Source: Escherichia coli (GTDB lineage Bacteria > Pseudomonadota > Gammaproteobacteria > Enterobacterales > Enterobacteriaceae). From it: 64,000 nt of DNA. Position numbers and translations under genes: made by a program. Shown here piece after piece: positions 7,458-53,425 of the stretch. Where the stretch lies: assembly GCF_003018235.1 (NCBI RefSeq), contig NZ_CP027437.1; one strand, written 5' to 3'. Positions within the stretch are counted from its first letter, which is position 1; every line of letters starts with the position of its first letter. A model generated the notes under the pieces. That model did no database searches and had not been told where the DNA came from. It was given only the letters and a program-made list of their open reading frames with translations.

Positions 7458-7534
7458 GCGCCGTTAGCTCAGCTGGACAGAGCAATTGCCTTCTAAGCAA
7501 TCGGTCACTGGTTCGAATCCAGTATGGCGCACCA
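7458..7534 (+). tRNA. tRNA-Arg (anticodon TCT, reads AGA)
   Basis: Cloverleaf folded by hand: 7-bp acceptor stem, perfect 5-bp anticodon stem ATTGC/GCAAT, loop CTTCTAA, T-loop TTCGAAT, encoded CCA. Confidence 0.85.
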
Positions 7535-7535
7535 T

Positions 7536-7610
7536 GCGGTCATCGTATAATGGCTATTACCTCGGCCTTCCAGGCTGATGATGCGGGTTCGATTCCAGCT
7601 GGCCGCTCCA
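7536..7610 (+). tRNA. tRNA-Gly (anticodon TCC), glyT-like with one T-stem mismatch
   Basis: 75 nt, near-identical to E. coli glyT recalled from memory; anticodon loop CTTCCAG; acceptor stem with one G-U; T-stem GCGGG/CCAGC has a G-A mismatch. Confidence 0.7.
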
Positions 7611-11025: not shown

Positions 11026-11102
11026 CACCTCATACTCAGGCCACCAGCATACAGCGGTGGCCTTTTGTTATCGTGCGCTTCCGGAGAACGGGAGACGGGG
11101 AT

Positions 11103-11318
11103 ATGTACCAGATGGAAAAAATCACAACAGGGGTGTCATACACCACGTCAGCGGCGGGAACGGGATACTGGTTACTGCAGCTGCTGGACAGGGTCTCCCC
11201 GTCCCAGTGGGCGGCGATAGGCGTGCTGGGGAGTCTGCTGTTTGGTCTGCTGACGTACCTGACGAACCTGTATTTTAAAATCAGAGAGGACCGTCGTAAG
11301 GCGGCGCGGGGAGAATAA
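11103..11318 (+). CDS. holin, phage-21 S-type (pinholin-like) with dual-start motif MYQM
   Basis: Near-identity to S21 C-terminal region ([14 protein letters not shown]...[22 protein letters not shown], from memory); two TM segments. Confidence 0.8.
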
Positions 11319-11321
11319 ATA

Positions 11322-11953
11322 ATGAACCATGAAGAAATGAATCAGCGCTTCAGTCGCCTGGAAAATGAAATTGCCGGACTGAATAAAAAACTGTCGGCGC
11401 TGGTGACTTCTGAAGATGAAAAAAAAAACGCCGCGATGAACAGGAGGCGGCGTTTTATGATTATTGCATCAAAGTTGCCCGCAGGACCTTTGCGAATTTT
11501 TTGCAGGAAAAGCTATCACCGACCACATCGTCAGAAAAGTACTCCATTACGGTTGAAAGTGCCGGAGAGGAAGGCAATAAACGTTATTTTATTGCGTCTG
11601 CACCGGATAAAGACGAGGAACCCCGTCGGCCTTTCAGGGTTTCCTATGAAGAGGGGGAGTTCGTCGTTTATGAGAACGGAAAACCTGTCCGGGCATCGCA
11701 TCATCACTGCCTGAAAATTATTGATCTCGCTATTGGATGCCTGAAAGACGAAAACACCAGGGTTATGAAACGCATTGGCCGTTGCATGGGGTATCTGCAG
11801 GTGGCGGCAGAGATTGAAGCACTTGACAGTGGTGCTGACAGGGATACAGCGGTGCGGGAGTTCCTTCTTCGTGATTTCAATACCACGCCCTTTAAAAAAG
11901 TGCCTTATGACTGGATCCAGCCGGGCCTGACTTATCTCAAAGGGCGTATATGA
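11322..11953 (+). CDS. hypothetical gene between holin and endolysin, split into two frames at an A10 tract (11419-11428); fused product about 210 aa if -1 shift
   Basis: Frame 0 ORF 11322.. is protein-like for about 33 codons then junk-like; frame -1 is protein-like from the A-run to 11953 but has no ATG start; A10 tract followed by 7-bp-stem hairpin ACGCCGC...GCGGCGT. Confidence 0.35.
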
Positions 11954-11995: not shown

Positions 11996-12529
11996 ATGAA
12001 CGCAAAAATCAGATACGGCCTGTCGGCTGCCGTTCTGGCGCTGATTGCCGCAGGGGCTTCTGCGCCAGAAATCCTTGACCAGTTTCTGAATGAAAAAGAA
12101 GGTAATCACACCACGGCATACCGTGATGGTGCGGGTATCTGGACCATCTGCCGTGGTGCCATTCTGGTGGACGGTAAGCCTGTTGTTCCCGGCATGAAGT
12201 TGTCGAGGGAAAAATGCGACCAGGTTAACGCCATCGAACGTGACAGGGCGCTGGCATGGGTGGAGAAAAACATCAAAGTGCCGCTGACCGAACCGCAGAA
12301 AGCGGGGATTGCGTCATTCTGCCCGTACAACATCGGTCCTTCGAAATGCTTCACCTCAACGTTTTACCGGAGACTGAACGCCGGAGACCGTAAGGGGGCA
12401 TGTGCTGAAATCCGTCGGTGGATATATGACGGTGGCAGGGACTGCCGTATCCGCTCAAACAACTGCTACGGTCAGGTATCCCGGCGTGACCAGGAGAGTG
12501 CGCTGGCGTGCTGGGGTATCGACAGATAA
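11996..12529 (+). CDS. SAR endolysin (lysozyme, phage-21 R-type)
   Basis: N-terminal signal-anchor-release helix LSAAVLALIAAGASA followed by lysozyme catalytic region EGNHTTAYRDGAGIWTICRG. Confidence 0.8.
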   Translation: MNAKIRYGLSAAVLALIAAGASAPEILDQFLNEKEGNHTTAYRDGAGIWTICRGAILVDGKPVVPGMKLSREKCDQVNAIERDRALAWVEKNIKVPLTEPQKAGIASFCPYNIGPSKCFTSTFYRRLNAGDRKGACAEIRRWIYDGGRDCRIRSNNCYGQVSRRDQESALACWGIDR

Positions 12530-12619
12530 GCAGAATATTTTGCTGAAAAATGAGATTTTCCCACGCGTCCGGAAAACACAAAATCCTTCATAAAGGTATT
12601 TCAGTAGTGAATAAAAGTA

Positions 12620-12660
12620 AAAACCCCGATTGCGCTAACAGTCGGGGTTTTGTGTTTCTG
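12620..12660. terminator. bidirectional intrinsic terminator-like hairpin (AAAACCCCGA...TCGGGGTTTT)
   Basis: GC stem flanked by A-run and T-run. Confidence 0.5.
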
Positions 12661-12749
12661 ACCTTGAATAAGGCAAGGGAGAAATTATCAGGTAGGGAGG
12701 TGCTTTCCCTGTGAGGAAGTATAAAAGATTCTTTCTGAGGTTGTCCATT

Positions 12750-12863
12750 ATGAAAGGCATTGAAGTGGAGACGCCAGCCAGTCTGGATTTAACAAGAGCA
12801 GCAGCCTTTGCCATTCGTATTGTGGCAATTGCCATACTGGTCTGGGCAATCCGCTGGTGGTGA
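12750..12863 (+). CDS. small hydrophobic ORF (37 aa) overlapping the Rz start
   Basis: ATG ORF ending TGGTGATATG where Rz starts; one TM-like helix; weak RBS. Confidence 0.2.
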
Positions 12864-12864
12864 T

Positions 12865-13332
12865 ATGAACCGTGTTCTGTATGTGTTGATTATTGTCCTG
12901 CTGGTGGCCTGCGGTGCGCTGTGGCTGGCAACAGACCATTACCGCGATAATGCCATCACTTACAAAGCGCAGCGCGATAAAAAAGTCAGAGAACTGAAGC
13001 TGGCTGACGCCACCATTACTGACATGCAGCAGCGCCAGCGTGATGTTGCTGCACTCGATGCAAAATACACAAAGGAGTTAGCCGATGCGAGAGCTGAAAA
13101 TGAAACTCTGCGCGCTGATGTTGCTGCTGGTCGTAAGCGCCTGCGTGTCAACGCCACCTGTGTGTCCGCCACAGACAAAGCCACCGGCACCGCCCGCGTG
13201 GGTAATGCTGCCCGCCCCAGACTGGCAGACGCCGCTCAACGGTATTATTTCACCCTCAGAGAGCGGCTGATGACGATGCAGAAGCAACTGGAAGGGGCAC
13301 AGGAATATATCAGGACGCAATGCGTGAAATAG
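12865..13332 (+). CDS. i-spanin Rz
   Basis: N-terminal TM helix then coiled-coil periplasmic domain; embedded Rz1 frame. Confidence 0.7.
13100..13270 (+). CDS. o-spanin Rz1 (lipoprotein embedded in Rz in +1 frame)
   Basis: Lipobox LLVVSAC and Pro-rich mature region, fully inside Rz. Confidence 0.65.
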
Positions 13333-13759
13333 GTTTTCTCAGTGCGTTGTATCGTCGCCGTATTCCCGCATTAACAGAGACCGCAGCCCGACGGGGAGAC
13401 TCCTCTGCGCGAGTGTGCGGGAATAATCAGAAACGATGCACACCGGGTTTTGCCGCGTAAACAGGACGCGGACTGCACCCACATGGTCGCCTGTCCGGTG
13501 CGATGGTGGAAGAAACCGGAACACTCAGTACTCACCTGGAATAAAAAAAGCCGCAGGTGGTATGCGGCATAAAATGGCACGAATTAGTGGATGTTTCTTT
13601 TTTCGTTTGTATTTTTATCTGATTTCCTGAGGTGTAATCAATTCGAAAAATACGTGAGAACAGAGCGTGTATTTTCGACCTTTTTTTGCTGGAAGAAACC
13701 TGATGTAAACACAATTGATAATTATTATCATTTGTGGGGTCCTCCTGGCGGGGTTGGCC

Positions 13760-13795
13760 TGTCCACGGGGCGGGTCGGCGCGGAAAAAGGCGCAT
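13760..13795. other. candidate cos site (cosN-like ACGGGGCGGGTCGGCGCGG)
   Basis: Resembles lambda cosN region ACGGGGCGGCGACCTCGCGG recalled from memory; lies between lysis genes and terminase as in lambda. Confidence 0.4.
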
Positions 13796-13970
13796 TTTTG
13801 TGATTTTATCGTCATCATCATCATGTGTTTAACGTATTGATTTTAAGTGAATTCATCCTGAAAAGATGATGATTGTGGTTAATTTTTGTTCGACATCTTT
13901 GTGTGGCGCTGTTTCTTTACAAAAAAAACAGAGTCACTTCTGTTTTGCGGTATTTGTGGAGGAGGAATAA

Positions 13971-14447: not shown

Positions 14448-16567
14448 ATCAGGTGAACGAGAGCCACAGCCGCGCATCAGATATCTGGCGCGAAGTGGCC
14501 TCACTGTTTCGCCCACCAGGCCGGTTACCTGTGGCGGAAGCCATCAGGCGTTACATGCGGGTACCACGGGGAGCCAATACTTCCGGTCCGTGGGAGTCAT
14601 CGCTGACGCCCTACATGATTGACCCCATTAATACATTATCAGCCCGTGAATATGACGCGGTGGTGTTTGTGGGACCGGCGCGAACCGGGAAAACCGAAGG
14701 GCTGATTGATGGCTGGATTGTGTATGGCATTATCTGCGATCCGGCGGATATGCTGGTGGTGCAGATGACCGAAACAAAGGCGCGGGAGCATTCCAGAACG
14801 CGTCTTTCCAGGACATTTCGTCACAGTCCGGAGGTCAGTAAACGCCTCAGCCCTTCCCGTAATGACAACAACGTCCACGATAAAATGTTTCTTGACGGCT
14901 CCTTTCTGAAAATTGGCTGGCCGTCGATCACCGTATTTTCCTCCTCAGATTACCGCCGGGTGGCGCTGACGGACTATGACCGTTTTCCTGAGAACGTCGA
15001 CGGTGAAGGGGATGCCTTCACGCTGGCATCAAAGCGTACCACCACCTTTATGTCCTCAGGGATGACCCTGGTCGAAAGTTCACCCGGGCGGGATATCACC
15101 GACACCAAATGGCGATGTGGTGGTGCACATGAGGCTCCGCCAACAACGGGGATCCTGTCGCTGTATAACCGGGGAGACCGCCGCCGGTGGTACTGGCCGT
15201 GTCCGCACTGCGGGGAATATTTTCAGCCGGTGATGGATAACATGACCGGTTACCGTAATAACCCAGATTTTGTGGCTGCGGGTCAGGCTGCCCGTCTGAT
15301 GTGTCCGCACTGTCGCGGGCTGATTGCTCCGGAACAGAAACGCGAACTGAATAACAGGGGGATCTGGCTGCGGGAAGGTGAACGGGCGGCGGCGGACGGC
15401 AGCATCACCGGAACGCCACGAAATTCCAGGATTGCGTCATTCTGGATGGAGGGTCCGGCTGCGGCGTTTCAGACCTGGGAACAACTGATTTTTAAGCTGC
15501 TGGCGGCAGAAGAAGAGTATGAGCGAACCGGCAGTGAAGAGACCCTGAAAGCGGTGGTGAATACCGATATCGGACGGCCTTATCTGCCCCGTTCAGCCAC
15601 GGAACAGCGTAAAAGTGAACTGCTTGAACAGCGTGCTGAGCCGGTTCCCCGGCGGTGTGTGCCGGATGGGGTGCGCTTCATTGAGGCAACGGTTGACGTA
15701 CAGGGCGGTAAAAACCGCCGGTTTGTGGTGCAGATCACCGGATATGGAGAGCAGGGGGAACGCTGGATTGTTGATCGCTACAACATCCGGCAATCACTGC
15801 GATGCAGTCCCGGTGGTGAGAGCCTGCCGGTTGATCCGGCGGCCTATCCGGAAGACTGGGAACTGTTGCTGACAGATGTGTTTCACAAAACCTGGCCGCT
15901 GGCGTCTGATCCGGATGTGCATATGCGGCTCATGGCGATGGCCGTGGATACGGGCGGTGAAGCCGGGGTGACGGATAACGCCTATCGTTTCTGGCGGCAG
16001 TGCCGCCGGGAAGGGCTGGGTAACCGGGTGTTTCTGTTCAAGGGGGATGGTCTTCGTCGCGACAGACTGATTAACCGGACATTCCCGGATAACACCGGCA
16101 GAAGCGCCCGCCGGGCCAGGGCGAGCGGTGACGTTGCCCTGTGGCTGGTACAGACCGATGCGTTTAAGGACCGGGTGAATAATGCGCTGTGGCGTGACAC
16201 ACCGGGGCCGAACTATATCCACTTTCCTGACTGGCTGGGACGGTGGTTTTTCGATGAGCTGACCTATGAGGAGCGCGGCAGTGACGGAAAATGGCGAAAA
16301 CCGGGCAGAGGCGCTAACGAAGCGTTTGACCTGCTGGTCTATGCGGATGCGCTTGCCGTTCTGCATGGCTACGAGAAGATACGCTGGCCGTCTGCACCGG
16401 ACTGGGCGCAGCGGGAAACATGGCTTGTCGGTCCGGAGGAGCGTTCAGGGCTGACAACATCACGGGCGCTGCCGGAAAGGAAAGAAAAACGCCGTCGCAG
16501 GCAGGAAAAACTGCGCGCAGAGCGGGCAGAGGATAATCCGTGGATAACATCAGGAGGCTGGTTGTGA
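14444..16567 (+). CDS. terminase large subunit (lambda gpA-like)
   Basis: Walker A VVFVGPARTGKTEG; zinc-binding CPHCGE...CPHCRG as in lambda A; 707 aa; GTG start overlapping upstream stop. Confidence 0.9.
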   Translation: MNQVNESHSRASDIWREVASLFRPPGRLPVAEAIRRYMRVPRGANTSGPWESSLTPYMIDPINTLSAREYDAVVFVGPARTGKTEGLIDGWIVYGIICDPADMLVVQMTETKAREHSRTRLSRTFRHSPEVSKRLSPSRNDNNVHDKMFLDGSFLKIGWPSITVFSSSDYRRVALTDYDRFPENVDGEGDAFTLASKRTTTFMSSGMTLVESSPGRDITDTKWRCGGAHEAPPTTGILSLYNRGDRRRWYWPCPHCGEYFQPVMDNMTGYRNNPDFVAAGQAARLMCPHCRGLIAPEQKRELNNRGIWLREGERAAADGSITGTPRNSRIASFWMEGPAAAFQTWEQLIFKLLAAEEEYERTGSEETLKAVVNTDIGRPYLPRSATEQRKSELLEQRAEPVPRRCVPDGVRFIEATVDVQGGKNRRFVVQITGYGEQGERWIVDRYNIRQSLRCSPGGESLPVDPAAYPEDWELLLTDVFHKTWPLASDPDVHMRLMAMAVDTGGEAGVTDNAYRFWRQCRREGLGNRVFLFKGDGLRRDRLINRTFPDNTGRSARRARASGDVALWLVQTDAFKDRVNNALWRDTPGPNYIHFPDWLGRWFFDELTYEERGSDGKWRKPGRGANEAFDLLVYADALAVLHGYEKIRWPSAPDWAQRETWLVGPEERSGLTTSRALPERKEKRRRRQEKLRAERAEDNPWITSGGWL

Positions 16568-50764: not shown

Positions 50765-53425
50765 TCATGATTCCTCGCGCTGGGCAAGATTTAGCGTAAG
50801 CCCAACGATCCCCTCTTCGAGCTGGATATCAACGTTAAACCCGAGCTTGCGGGCCAGCGCCACCATGCCACGATTGTTTGGCATCGTAATACCATTCAGA
50901 CGTTGTAGTCCGTGATCTCGCGTATAGGTAATCAACTTTTCCATTAAGCGTCGACCTAAGCCTAACCCTTTGAGATCCGAGCGAACCAGCACGGCAAATT
51001 CGGCATCGATGTTATCAGGGTCGGAGATCGCACGCGTGACGCCGAGGATCTCTTCCGTTTGTTCAATACGTCGTACTGCTACAAACGCCATTTCCCGATC
51101 GTAGTCGATCTGCGTCATGTTGGCTAAATCTTCATGGGTAAATTCGTTGATCTCGCTAAAGTAGCGGTAATAAAGATCTTCTTTGGTGACTCGCGAAATG
51201 AATTGCTGAAGTTGTGGCTCATCTTCTGGCAAAATCGGGCGGAACAAGCAGCGTTCACCGTTTTTCAATTCTACCCATTCTTCCAGCTGATGCGGATAAG
51301 GGCGCACTGCCAGCCGACTCTCGTTATCGCCTTCAAACGGCGCGATATCCAGCGTGACATCCAGCGCGGTAAATTCACTGCCAGAAGCCAGCAAAGGATG
51401 AATATCCAGACGCTGAATTTCCGGGCAATCGACAATCAAGTTAGAAACCTGCACCAGAAGCTGGCTCAAGCCTGCAACATCTAATGGGCGTAGCGCACTG
51501 CGCGCACGAATCTTTTTACTTTTGATCCCCTGAATAACCAGATAGCGGGCCAGGTTCATGTTCAGCGGCGGTAGTGCGACGACGGCTTGATCTTCAGGAC
51601 GCCACTCCACACCGCCTTCGCCCAGCATGATCAACGGCCCGAAAACCGGATCGTGCTCAACCACAACCCGCAACTCCTGAGCGCCAGCACGGTTAGCCAT
51701 ACTTTGCACCAACAGGCCGTGGATCCGCGCCTGCGGCCAGGCCATTTTTACGCGATCGAAAATAGCGTTTGCCGCTTGCTGGACTTCATTAGCTGTACGC
51801 AGGTAGAGCATTACGCCCTGAACTTCCGATTTATGTGGAATATCCGGCGAACGCAATTTCAGCGCCACCGGATAACCAATCTGTTCGGCAATATGCACCG
51901 CTTCGGTGCTATCGCTGGCAATCCAGGTGGGGAGCGTGTTCATGCCATACGCTTGCAGGATGGGCTGAACTTCATGGGTATCGAGCGACGTAGCCCCTTC
52001 GGCAATCGCCTGTTGCAACAGAAGATGTGCTTCTGCGGTATTGGAGGTCAGATTGCTGGGCAACGCCGGCGTTTCGCGTAGTTGCTTCTGATTACGTCGG
52101 TACTCCACCATATGCATAAAAGCAGTGATGGTTCCTTCCGGCGTGCGATAGGTCGGCAGCCCGGCTTCACTGAATAATCGTCGTGCCTCTTGAGAGGAGT
52201 GCTCGCCGCACCAGTTCGTCAGCAGAGAAACATACTTGCTGCGGGGATGATGCTTTACCGCTTCAATTAATACTTGCGCGCTTTCTGTTGCGGGAGCAGC
52301 GGCGCTGGGCGAATGAATAACCATCAGCGCATCAAAATCCTGGCTGTGGAGCAGAATGTCCAGCGTTTTGACATAATGCTCGCTGCTGGCGTCATCGCGT
52401 AGATCGAGCGGGTTAGAGACTGCCACATGTTCTGGCAGTGCATCGCGCAGTTTCTGGCAGGTTTCTTCGCTTAGTGTTGCCAGCTTGCCATTGCGTGACC
52501 ATAAGGCATCCAGCGCCAGCGCGGCAGGCGCAGCACCGTTGCTGATAATCATCAACCGGTCGCCACGCAGCGGGCGCATATGGCTAAGGGTTTCTACCGC
52601 CGAAAACAGTTCGTGGGTGTCCTGTACCCGCAACAAACCGGCACGCTGAATAGCCGCATCCCACGCCGGATCCATTCCTGCCGTGGTGTTCAACAGACGT
52701 TGAGCCGCCGGGCTACGTCCGCTTTTAATCACCAGAATCGGTTTATTGCGAGAGGCACTACGGGCCGCCGAAACAAAGCGTCGCGCGTCGCTTAACTGTT
52801 CGAGATAGAGCAGGATGGCGCTGGTTTTACTGTCGCGCGCCAGATAGTCGAGCAATTCATCAACGTCGATATCCAGGCTGTCGCCGAGCGCAATAAAGTA
52901 GGAAAAGCCCATCTCACGCTGTTGCGCCCAGTCGAGGATGGTATTGGAGACGGCAGCCGATTGCGAAATAAACGCCAGCTTGCCGCGTTTAATCGGCACA
53001 GGTGAAAAGCTGGCATTTAGACCTTGCCAGGGAGCCAGTAAACCCAGACTGTTTGGTCCTAGCAGGCGCATGTTATGGCGCAGGGCGCAGGCGCGGAGAT
53101 CTTCGTGTTGCGATGCCGGGGCGGAAAGAATAATGCAGGTTTTACAGCCTTTCTCGCCGAGCTCTTCCAGAAGAGCAAGATTACGGCTGGCATTGGTACA
53201 TAAAACCGCAAGGTCGGGTGTAAAGGGCAAGCTGGCAATATCCGGCCAGGCCAACACACCCAACACCGCTTTCCAGGCAGGCGTCACCGGGAGTACCGGT
53301 CCGTTAAAGCCTCCCGCCAGCAGGTTACGCATCATCAGGTAACCTGCGCGATTGGGTTTCATCGATGCGCCAATTACCGCAATCGATTTTGGTCGCAGTA
53401 GTGCTTCCAGTCCTCGCTGACTCAT
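50765..53425 (-). CDS. patZ: protein lysine acetyltransferase PatZ/Pka
   Basis: 886 aa; N-terminal CoA-binding/acyl-CoA synthetase-like region and C-terminal GNAT domain. Confidence 0.95.
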   Translation of the reverse strand: MSQRGLEALLRPKSIAVIGASMKPNRAGYLMMRNLLAGGFNGPVLPVTPAWKAVLGVLAWPDIASLPFTPDLAVLCTNASRNLALLEELGEKGCKTCIILSAPASQHEDLRACALRHNMRLLGPNSLGLLAPWQGLNASFSPVPIKRGKLAFISQSAAVSNTILDWAQQREMGFSYFIALGDSLDIDVDELLDYLARDSKTSAILLYLEQLSDARRFVSAARSASRNKPILVIKSGRSPAAQRLLNTTAGMDPAWDAAIQRAGLLRVQDTHELFSAVETLSHMRPLRGDRLMIISNGAAPAALALDALWSRNGKLATLSEETCQKLRDALPEHVAVSNPLDLRDDASSEHYVKTLDILLHSQDFDALMVIHSPSAAAPATESAQVLIEAVKHHPRSKYVSLLTNWCGEHSSQEARRLFSEAGLPTYRTPEGTITAFMHMVEYRRNQKQLRETPALPSNLTSNTAEAHLLLQQAIAEGATSLDTHEVQPILQAYGMNTLPTWIASDSTEAVHIAEQIGYPVALKLRSPDIPHKSEVQGVMLYLRTANEVQQAANAIFDRVKMAWPQARIHGLLVQSMANRAGAQELRVVVEHDPVFGPLIMLGEGGVEWRPEDQAVVALPPLNMNLARYLVIQGIKSKKIRARSALRPLDVAGLSQLLVQVSNLIVDCPEIQRLDIHPLLASGSEFTALDVTLDIAPFEGDNESRLAVRPYPHQLEEWVELKNGERCLFRPILPEDEPQLQQFISRVTKEDLYYRYFSEINEFTHEDLANMTQIDYDREMAFVAVRRIEQTEEILGVTRAISDPDNIDAEFAVLVRSDLKGLGLGRRLMEKLITYTRDHGLQRLNGITMPNNRGMVALARKLGFNVDIQLEEGIVGLTLNLAQREES

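Follow-up and report, generated by a model that had tools for sequence, protein, structure and literature searches.

A hairpin and a small predicted membrane-protein gene as a portable cassette between the endolysin and spanin genes of an Escherichia coli prophage

The window analysed here is a stretch of 64,000 nucleotides of Escherichia coli DNA (assembly GCF_003018235.1, contig NZ_CP027437.1), a segment of the chromosome in which patZ (50765–53425) is 100% identical to the copy of an E. coli strain, and it carries the lysis cassette of a lambdoid prophage in the order S21-type holin, 630-bp insert, R21-type lysozyme, 335-bp spacer and Rz/Rz1. The subject of this work is the 335-bp spacer, which is bounded on the left by the R21-type endolysin gene R (11996–12529, + strand; in the ORF list, with a signal-arrest-release (SAR)-like N-terminus and a Pfam Phage_lysozyme match of 3e-25) and on the right by the i-spanin gene Rz (12865–13332, + strand; in the ORF list, Pfam Phage_lysis 2.2e-49). 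It contains a hairpin, a small open reading frame (ORF) and, on the opposite strand, a promoter-like site. At about even odds (a probability of roughly 0.5), the spacer is a portable cassette of the late operon, in which a terminator hairpin is joined to the gene of a membrane protein that would serve as an accessory of lysis and would be under antisense control.

The hairpin occupies 12620–12651 (AAAACCCCGATTG-CGCTAA-CAGTCGGGGTTTT) with 13 pairs, six of them G-C, and a loop of 6, and it begins 91 nt past the endolysin stop at 12529; together with the A-run and the T-run beside it, it covers 12616–12657 and forms the left end of the portable cassette. Folded as the + strand it has an energy of −20.0 kcal/mol (z −4.57), and folded as the − strand, −17.0 kcal/mol (z −4.07). 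Since A and T runs lie on either side, giving U-tracts on both strands (+ tail UUUUGUGUUU, − tail UUUUUACUUUU), it reads as a predicted intrinsic terminator in both directions, and it has the GC-rich stem-loop with an immediate U-tract by which an intrinsic (Rho-independent) terminator is recognised. A simple terminator scan, taken by count alone, showed no enrichment (4 found vs 3.2 expected). The hairpin and the ORF co-occur in hundreds of related loci, where the stem covaries and the ORF varies codon-wise: the base of the stem, CCCCG/CGGGG, is invariant in relatives, and the upper stem covaries (UA<->CG). In distant and environmental homologues, a usable U-tail past the hairpin is found on the minus strand only.

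Some smaller observations on the hairpin may be added. In two clade B loci (L066 and L077; the clades are described below) the + strand T-run after the hairpin is swapped for a G-run with the minus-strand T-run intact, which may be a homopolymer assembly error or a loss of the + strand terminator only. The motif at the top of the hairpin, GCG(G/C)(C)TAAC, lies on the + strand in the window (12629–12643), in P22 (L008, 15031–15046), in L171 and in L172, and on the − strand in L247 and in the second copy of L170, so that, with respect to the small gene, the hairpin element apparently can face either way. An Rfam rimP-leader match on the hairpin was dismissed as meaningless.

The small ORF, as first described, has 37 codons from ATG 12750 to TGA 12861–12863 and ends 1 nt before the Rz ATG (12865–12867), the junction reading TGG TGG TGA T ATG. 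Among PHROG profiles, the 50-amino-acid form considered below matches phrog_4493 at 2.8e-24 (residues 1–50 against positions 1–54 of 56) and phrog_1115 at 2.1e-11, and the 37-amino-acid form matches phrog_4493 at 1.1e-15; that is to say, the match spans the whole protein, as family membership demands, and both families are uncharacterised. The phrog_1115-type paralogue likewise matches both phrog_4493 and phrog_1115. Scans of the two forms against Pfam, NCBIfam and PADLOC returned no family match. The close homologues comprise 49 cluster representatives, and the two largest clusters are each found on at least about 1000 contigs from E. coli, Shigella, Salmonella, Citrobacter and Yersinia, all labelled hypothetical or "putative transmembrane protein". 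In IMG/VR, 278 viral stretches encode a relative, and 665 of the 5426 complete E. coli genomes contain at least 80% of a 601-nt R-spacer-Rz query, none closer than 93%. The sequences were in databases beforehand as hypothetical proteins, and the novelty lies in how the cassette and the place it occupies are read; full-text literature searches gave nothing on a gene between R and Rz.

The loci that carry the ORF were collapsed to 40 distinct sequences (the window included) and aligned, giving two clades, A and B, whose ORFs differ mainly at third codon positions. Over these distinct loci, the ratio of non-synonymous to synonymous variation (pN/pS) is 0.046–0.119, pS reaching as much as 0.79, and the only replacements are among I, L and V. 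Because of this low ratio, these conservative replacements and a start, stop and frame conserved down to 36% identity, the comparison indicates that the small ORF is a real gene under purifying selection. The original prediction had described a bidirectional terminator-like hairpin after the endolysin and a 37-amino-acid hydrophobic ORF ending at the Rz start, and both parts of that observation are confirmed; its suggestion that the spacer encodes a small accessory membrane peptide is supported as well, and the finding that would have spoken against it, a spacer that is non-coding with no conserved frame in homologous phages, was looked for and the frame proved to be conserved. The frame on the other strand has the same wobble positions as the sense frame, for which reason periodicity by itself cannot choose the strand; the antisense ORF 12635–12835 (66 amino acids) was ruled out by a pN/pS of 0.16–0.25, radical replacements, unconserved ends and the indels it crosses. 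An ORF through the hairpin, 12550–12714, was set aside, since the stretch from the hairpin to the GTG at 12711 differs by indels between clades.

The gene most likely begins at that GTG and extends over 12711–12863 on the + strand, encoding a 50-amino-acid membrane protein of the phrog_4493/1115 family, so that the 37-amino-acid ORF is present as described but is probably not the whole gene: it would represent either the C-terminal portion of the gene or a second form initiated internally. The GTG (12711–12713) is preceded by a Shine–Dalgarno (SD) element, AGGGAGGT at 12694–12701, which is found in clade B too, and of 39 distinct relatives, 36 have G at position 12711, 2 have A and 1 has T, which gives GTG, ATG or TTG, all of them start codons. 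Further upstream stands a first SD-like element, AGGGAGAAAT, then ATC (12677–12689, + strand); in most relatives an ATG or GTG after this element opens a mini-ORF; that of clade A is MGREVLSL, and its stop overlaps the GTG start as GTGA. In the phrog_1115 paralogue (60 amino acids, MEKYKRILLRLTMKNGLELKAP...), the commonest paralogue in the same position, an ATG directly past the first SD opens the same N-terminus. A HMMER scan of 1.84 billion representatives gave 15 proteins at E <= 0.001, and the diverged P0080, P0081 and P0083 (36–48% identity) share the N-terminal motif (K)Y(K/R)K/R-x-F/I-x-LR-L/I/F-S/T/P-(x)-M; the extension Y-K-R-x-x-L-R-L-S/T is retained, with synonymous changes, in homologues at 36–59% identity. 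A third clade, C (L247 and L248, enterobacterial), has the N-terminus GTG AAC TAT AAA CGA ATT TTG TTG AGG TTA ACT ATG, which differs from the window by the synonymous changes AGA>CGA, CTG>TTG and TTG>TTA and the conservative replacements F>I, F>L and S>T. From the conservation of the start codon, the motif at the protein level, the changes in clade C and the start in phrog_1115, the 13-residue extension is most likely translated.

A second in-frame start at ATG 12750, yielding the 37-amino-acid form, is likely too, since conservation extends to both the internal Met and its upstream GAGG. The internal SD, GAGG at 12737–12740, lies in Leu-Arg codons (the site as a whole covering 12737–12752, + strand), the Met is present in 10 of the 11 aligned homologues (P0077 is the one lacking it), and (T/C)TGAGG stands 8–12 nt 5′ of the Met in all lineages examined except L170, which has TTGAGA. 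Annotation pipelines disagree on the length of the gene, giving 37, 50 or 57 amino acids; the Prokaryotic Genome Annotation Pipeline (PGAP) uses the 37-amino-acid form, and the comparative data favour the longer one for annotation. As for the structure, AlphaFold2 with an 11-sequence alignment gave a low-confidence helix at residues 3–14, a disordered acidic linker and a confident helix at 25–49 (predicted local distance difference test, pLDDT, ~91). The layout of the product is thus a basic N-terminal helix, an acidic linker and one C-terminal transmembrane helix ending RWW, and this small protein is predicted to span the inner membrane once. Because its extension carries five basic residues, the long form would be expected to sit N-in, with the N-terminal helix in the cytoplasm.

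Between clades, homology spans the stretch from the A-run and hairpin to the stop codon, and by this comparison the hairpin and the ORF are one portable cassette. In clade A the cassette lies behind the R21-type lysozyme and before Rz; in clade B, behind an M15-peptidase cassette with a 93-amino-acid ORF and before a 60-amino-acid lipoprotein (phrog_7528); in clade C, a phrog_126 holin and a phrog_873 endolysin precede it and a different Rz/Rz1 pair follows. At least two unrelated types of lysis cassette carry it at the endolysin/spanin junction, and in a third it comes after the lysis genes. In all three, the stop of the small ORF falls 1 base before the start of the next gene, and the orientation of the cassette is always co-linear with the late operon. 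The hairpin is not the mere end of the endolysin unit but a part of the mobile cassette, and it accompanies the ORF into positions behind unrelated genes. Diverged metagenomic homologues follow capsid genes (Phage_cap_E; GP7/Bbp16), directly behind a similar hairpin; in L170 (2423–3403), three tandem copies of a 48-nt hairpin element (77–94% identical) stand after a capsid gene, each followed by one or two small membrane ORFs, among them a phrog_4493 homologue, a relative in the N-terminal motif only (MKKYSKGIFRM..GIEV) and a phrog_6632-like ORF ending RWW. It may also be recorded that in clade B (L002, 2155–2337) the next gene, the 60-amino-acid predicted lipoprotein, has the lipobox LLVGC, and that no Rz-like gene is annotated in that cassette.

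Moreover, the junction of R and Rz can be regarded as a slot. In phage PhiR55_1, R (780–1313) and Rz (1310–1777) overlap (GTGA); relative to phages with such overlapping genes, the 335-bp spacer is an insertion, which agrees with the earlier suggestion of an indel in so far as sequence was gained, but it is no random indel. The left arm of the slot (12530–12613, + strand), a conserved non-coding segment of ~85 nt right after the endolysin stop, is seen in alignments and in BLAST of the spacer, and it is common to Shiga toxin (Stx) and other lambdoid phages whatever cargo comes next; homology to ant-carrying phages stops at ~12613, just short of the hairpin. In VT2-Sakai, for example, the slot holds ant and a 44-amino-acid membrane ORF (phrog_4906). 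A census of the slot was made over the 80 IMG/VR loci with the closest R21-type endolysins, 71 of which were resolved. R and Rz were contiguous at 1 locus, and cargo lay between them in the other 70: phrog_1115 with phrog_4906 (~480 bp) at 23 loci, ant-containing cargo at 14, a degenerate 290-bp version at 11, phrog_6632 with 4906 and a truncated 4493 at 10, the type of the window at 6 and other contents at 6. An occupied endolysin/spanin slot is the rule in this lineage; the expectation that endolysin and Rz genes are usually contiguous holds for lambda/P22-type cassettes but not here, and the earlier reading as a whole is partly supported. The breadth of cargo that the slot takes is also shown by L105 (IMGVR_UViG_2617271340_000014), whose slot of 1901 bp contains ant, a phrog_4906 ORF, a truncated phrog_4493 ORF and a gene of ~255 amino acids resembling DNA adenine methylase (MNNNSAKPFLPWLGGKRRLAKHILPLF...).

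On the minus strand, a promoter-like site occupies 12718–12747, with −35 TGGACA at 12747–12742, an 18-nt spacer and −10 TATACT at 12723–12718 (10/12 matches), its predicted start being at ~12712. Among promoter-like sites in 3 kb, TGGACA-18-TATACT is the only good one for which there is also a matching terminator, and clade B has it unchanged. A −10 of TATACT or TATAGT persists throughout clades A to C, in the phrog_1115 type and in L172 and L246, the last two having it in a different codon phase (AAA GTA TAC). In the block 12717–12749 around the promoter, 4 of 33 sites are variable, against 27 of the 37 wobble sites in the body of the ORF, so that the block appears to be more constrained than coding accounts for. 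The RNA predicted from this site (12610–12712, minus strand, ~100 nt) would be antisense to both SDs and the GTG start and would terminate at the hairpin and U-tract, with a fold of −29.1 kcal/mol (z −3.8). That such an RNA exists is a tentative proposal, to which we would give somewhat less than an even chance.

The layout recalls the sar/Psar/ant system of phage P22 (Rfam RF00262), which has the same order of elements: an upstream stop, a GC-rich hairpin that ends the leftward RNA, an SD, a start codon and a leftward −10. In P22, sar (15021–15090, minus strand) ends at the arc-ant hairpin, and the Psar −10 TATACT lies 6 nt into ant; in the window, where the promoter is a prediction, TATACT lies 7 nt into the long ORF, and the predicted RNA, like sar, starts at the start codon and covers the SD. 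The loop and upper stem of the hairpin are also alike (P22 GACTGTTACCGCAG, clade B GACTGTTCCAGCAG, window GACTGTTAGCGCAA), and the match of the promoter, 10/12, is better than that of the proven Psar, which the same scan does not report. Unlike in P22, the regulated gene would be that of a 50-amino-acid membrane protein and not an antirepressor, and the predicted RNA is ~30 nt longer at its 5′ end. The Rfam sar model matched the minus strand at 12691–12616 with 31 bits (E 0.002), which lies below the gathering score of 43; membership of the sar family was dropped, because the match is sub-threshold and absent on the minus strand in relatives, and only the analogy of layout is kept.

Known prophage small RNAs (sRNAs) were ruled out as occupants of the slot: the AsxR/AgvB anti-sRNAs (PMC4104026) and the PasA-D sRNAs (bioRxiv 10.64898/2026.05.13.724894) have been mapped outside it, upstream of the holin or in structural operons. 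In VT2-Sakai (L007, 1181–1257, minus strand), a weak Esr41-like Rfam match (30.9 bits, the gathering score being 102) is found upstream of the holin, in the region of the published anti-sRNAs and Pas sRNAs.

From these elements, a working scheme can be put together. No + strand promoter-like site was found between the hairpin and the ORF in the window or in L002, and because a terminator also stands upstream, the gene would be transcribed only within the Q-antiterminated late transcript that reads through the hairpin, and non-antiterminated read-through in the lysogen would be halted there. As translation of the small gene would end 1 base before the Rz start, the protein should be expressed with the spanins and is probably coupled to them. 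It would then be, most likely, a late-acting accessory of envelope disruption, whose long and short forms may oppose each other like holin/antiholin pairs, for example in tuning lysis timing or membrane energisation. The conserved convergent promoter in the first codons would probably yield the ~100-nt antisense RNA. Terminated by the same hairpin, this RNA would occlude the long form's ribosome binding site in the way that P22 sar occludes that of ant. An accessory of lysis, expressed late, is our best guess for the function.

Several points weigh against this scheme. The position of the gene is the whole basis of the lysis role, and the distant homologues sit in head-gene clusters and not in lysis cassettes, which argues for a more general late function; literature searches gave no transcript, translation or phenotype data for the phrog_4493/1115 family. 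The start of the mini-ORF, which in most clade A relatives could couple translation to the GTG, is lost in the window and in E. coli A8. For the antisense RNA, Rfam gave no minus-strand sar match in the relatives L001–L007 and L246–L248, the sar match of L170 (25 bits) is on the + strand only, and the distant homologues have weak ctRNA or sar matches, again on the + strand only. Consensus folding of the putative RNA found nothing shared across clades beyond the terminator, the 5′ hairpins being clade-specific; the −35 degrades in relatives (TAGTCA, TAGTTA) and is absent in L170–L172 and L246; and the conserved block could instead reflect the initiation regions of the two starts.

The strongest alternative takes up these last points and supposes that there is no antisense RNA. 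The hairpin would be a read-through terminator or an mRNA-stabilising stem-loop of the late operon, which is quite possible though short of probable; P22 and its relatives are annotated with stem-loops behind highly expressed late genes. To the accompanying proposal, that the invariance of the block 12717–12757 reflects the overlapping demands of a coding extension and of initiation at the internal start, controlling the ratio of the two forms, we give the same sub-even standing. The poor keeping of the −35 extends to clade C and the phrog_1115 type, with its loss in environmental homologues, local + strand stems sequester both SDs, and the sub-threshold sar match is not reproduced on the minus strand of relatives, all as this alternative would have it. 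Yet the −10 TATACT persists despite the changed codon phase in L172 and L246, the U-tail of the distant homologues is usable on the minus strand only, and the promoter scores above a proven one.

A lysis role can be compared with known lysis genes. Dual-start holins (lambda S107/S105, phage 21 S71/S68, P22 gene 13) likewise have two in-frame starts, each with its SD, within a lysis cassette, and the longer form adds positive charge, as it does here with the five basic residues of the extension MRKYKRFFLRLSI. Unlike these holins, the window gene has an extension of 13 residues instead of 2–3, one transmembrane helix instead of two or three, and a place downstream of the endolysin in a cassette that already has an S21-type holin (11073–11318); holins make the lethal membrane lesion by which the endolysin is released or activated, and their genes normally stand upstream of it. 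Phage P2 carries a membrane-protein gene, lysA, between endolysin K and the spanin genes lysB/lysC, and it affects lysis timing; LysA is much larger than the window protein and has several transmembrane segments. The window gene lies at the same endolysin/spanin junction, and this likeness is positional only. A more specific proposal is that phrog_4493/1115 forms a new class of lysis regulator, with an N-in long form, a short acidic form and a sar-like RNA that silences the gene outside late growth. The short form would be free to reorient or oligomerise, and the two forms would time holin triggering or spanin action; in equivalent wording, a domesticated type I toxin-like peptide would act as the lysis trigger. 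We regard this proposal as unlikely.

Distinctly unlikely, too, is a type I toxin-antitoxin-like module, that is, a membrane toxin with an antisense antitoxin, which would be a selfish or abortive element carried by the late operon and no part of lysis. The product has the size of such toxins (50 or 37 amino acids, below 60) and, like Ldr, Hok, TisB and ZorO, a single hydrophobic helix and an aromatic/basic C-terminus; a cis-antisense RNA with its own terminator is predicted over the leader and the ribosome binding site; the overlap of the mini-ORF stop with the start (GTGA) in most clade A relatives recalls mok/hok; and the cassette moves among unrelated contexts, with tandem copies in L170. 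Unlike these toxins, the window gene is without a + strand promoter of its own and has a terminator upstream of it, it lies in the late operon and is always co-linear with it, and in the three enterobacterial clades it ends 1 base before the next gene, to which it is coupled in the proposed scheme; PADLOC also gave no match.

The preferred reading, a late-expressed lysis accessory, must further be set against a moron for lysogenic conversion or superinfection exclusion, in which a protein or antisense RNA expressed from the prophage protects the lysogen from related phages. According to Juhala et al. (2000), as cited in PMC4104026, a classical lambdoid moron has its own promoter upstream and a terminator downstream of a protein gene. 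The cassette resembles a moron in lying between genes that are adjacent in PhiR55_1 and contiguous at 1 of the 71 close loci, and the slot acts as an insertion site with rotating, interchangeable cargo, including ant and a DNA methylase. A prophage antisense RNA within late genes can exclude a superinfecting phage, as STnc6030 of BTP1 does (PMC7067206), and the putative minus-strand promoter is without obvious repressor control. The cassette differs from a moron in that its terminator is upstream of the protein gene, which has no promoter of its own, and the sole promoter-like site is on the opposite strand; by this layout the self-contained transcription unit would be the antisense RNA and not the protein gene. 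The RNA in turn is a prediction and would act solely on phages with the same cassette. We judge a moron to be improbable.

A non-coding spacer with a chance ORF, for which the lack of a Pfam, NCBIfam or PADLOC match and an open antisense frame sharing the wobble positions might be cited, is already refuted by the comparative data and keeps a negligible chance: pN/pS is 0.05–0.12, replacements are conservative in the + frame and radical in the antisense frame, whose ORF has unconserved ends and crosses indels, and the start, stop and frame are conserved across clades, down to 36% identity.

In summary of the likenesses, none of P22 sar/ant, dual-start holins, P2 lysA, type I toxins or morons fits as a family, and the locus is best described as a real, ordinary-looking, uncharacterised accessory gene of a lysis cassette with an interesting regulatory architecture. 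The usual description of lambdoid and Stx phage lysis cassettes names holin, endolysin and spanin, and here the junction is almost always filled, with cargo that rotates among uncharacterised genes for small membrane proteins (phrog_4493/1115, 4906 and 6632). These genes occur on more than a thousand contigs of E. coli, Shigella and Salmonella, Shiga-toxin phages included. If these proteins do tune the timing of lysis, burst size and toxin release would be affected, and if the antisense unit is real, the late operon would gain a riboregulator of the sar type.

As for the surroundings, the S21-type holin is identified by Pfam P21 holin S (3e-33), and the Rz1 o-spanin gene (13085–13270, + strand) is embedded in Rz. 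The gap between holin and endolysin also holds an insert of ~630 bp (11322–11953) with the ORFs 11322–11459 (phrog_15975/36381) and 11501–11953 (phrog_1085), all of families without assigned function; a second hairpin with A-run, GC-stem and T-run lies in it at 11425–11456 (AAAAAAAAACGCCGC...GCGGCGTTTT; −16 kcal/mol, z −4.5). In PhiR55_1, a YdfR-family ORF stands between S and R. Upstream of the late region, tRNA-Arg(tct) and tRNA-Gly(tcc) are located at 7458–7610. After Rz, the ~640 bp of 13333–13970 are without a long ORF and contain a terminator-like site on the minus strand at 13568–13550.

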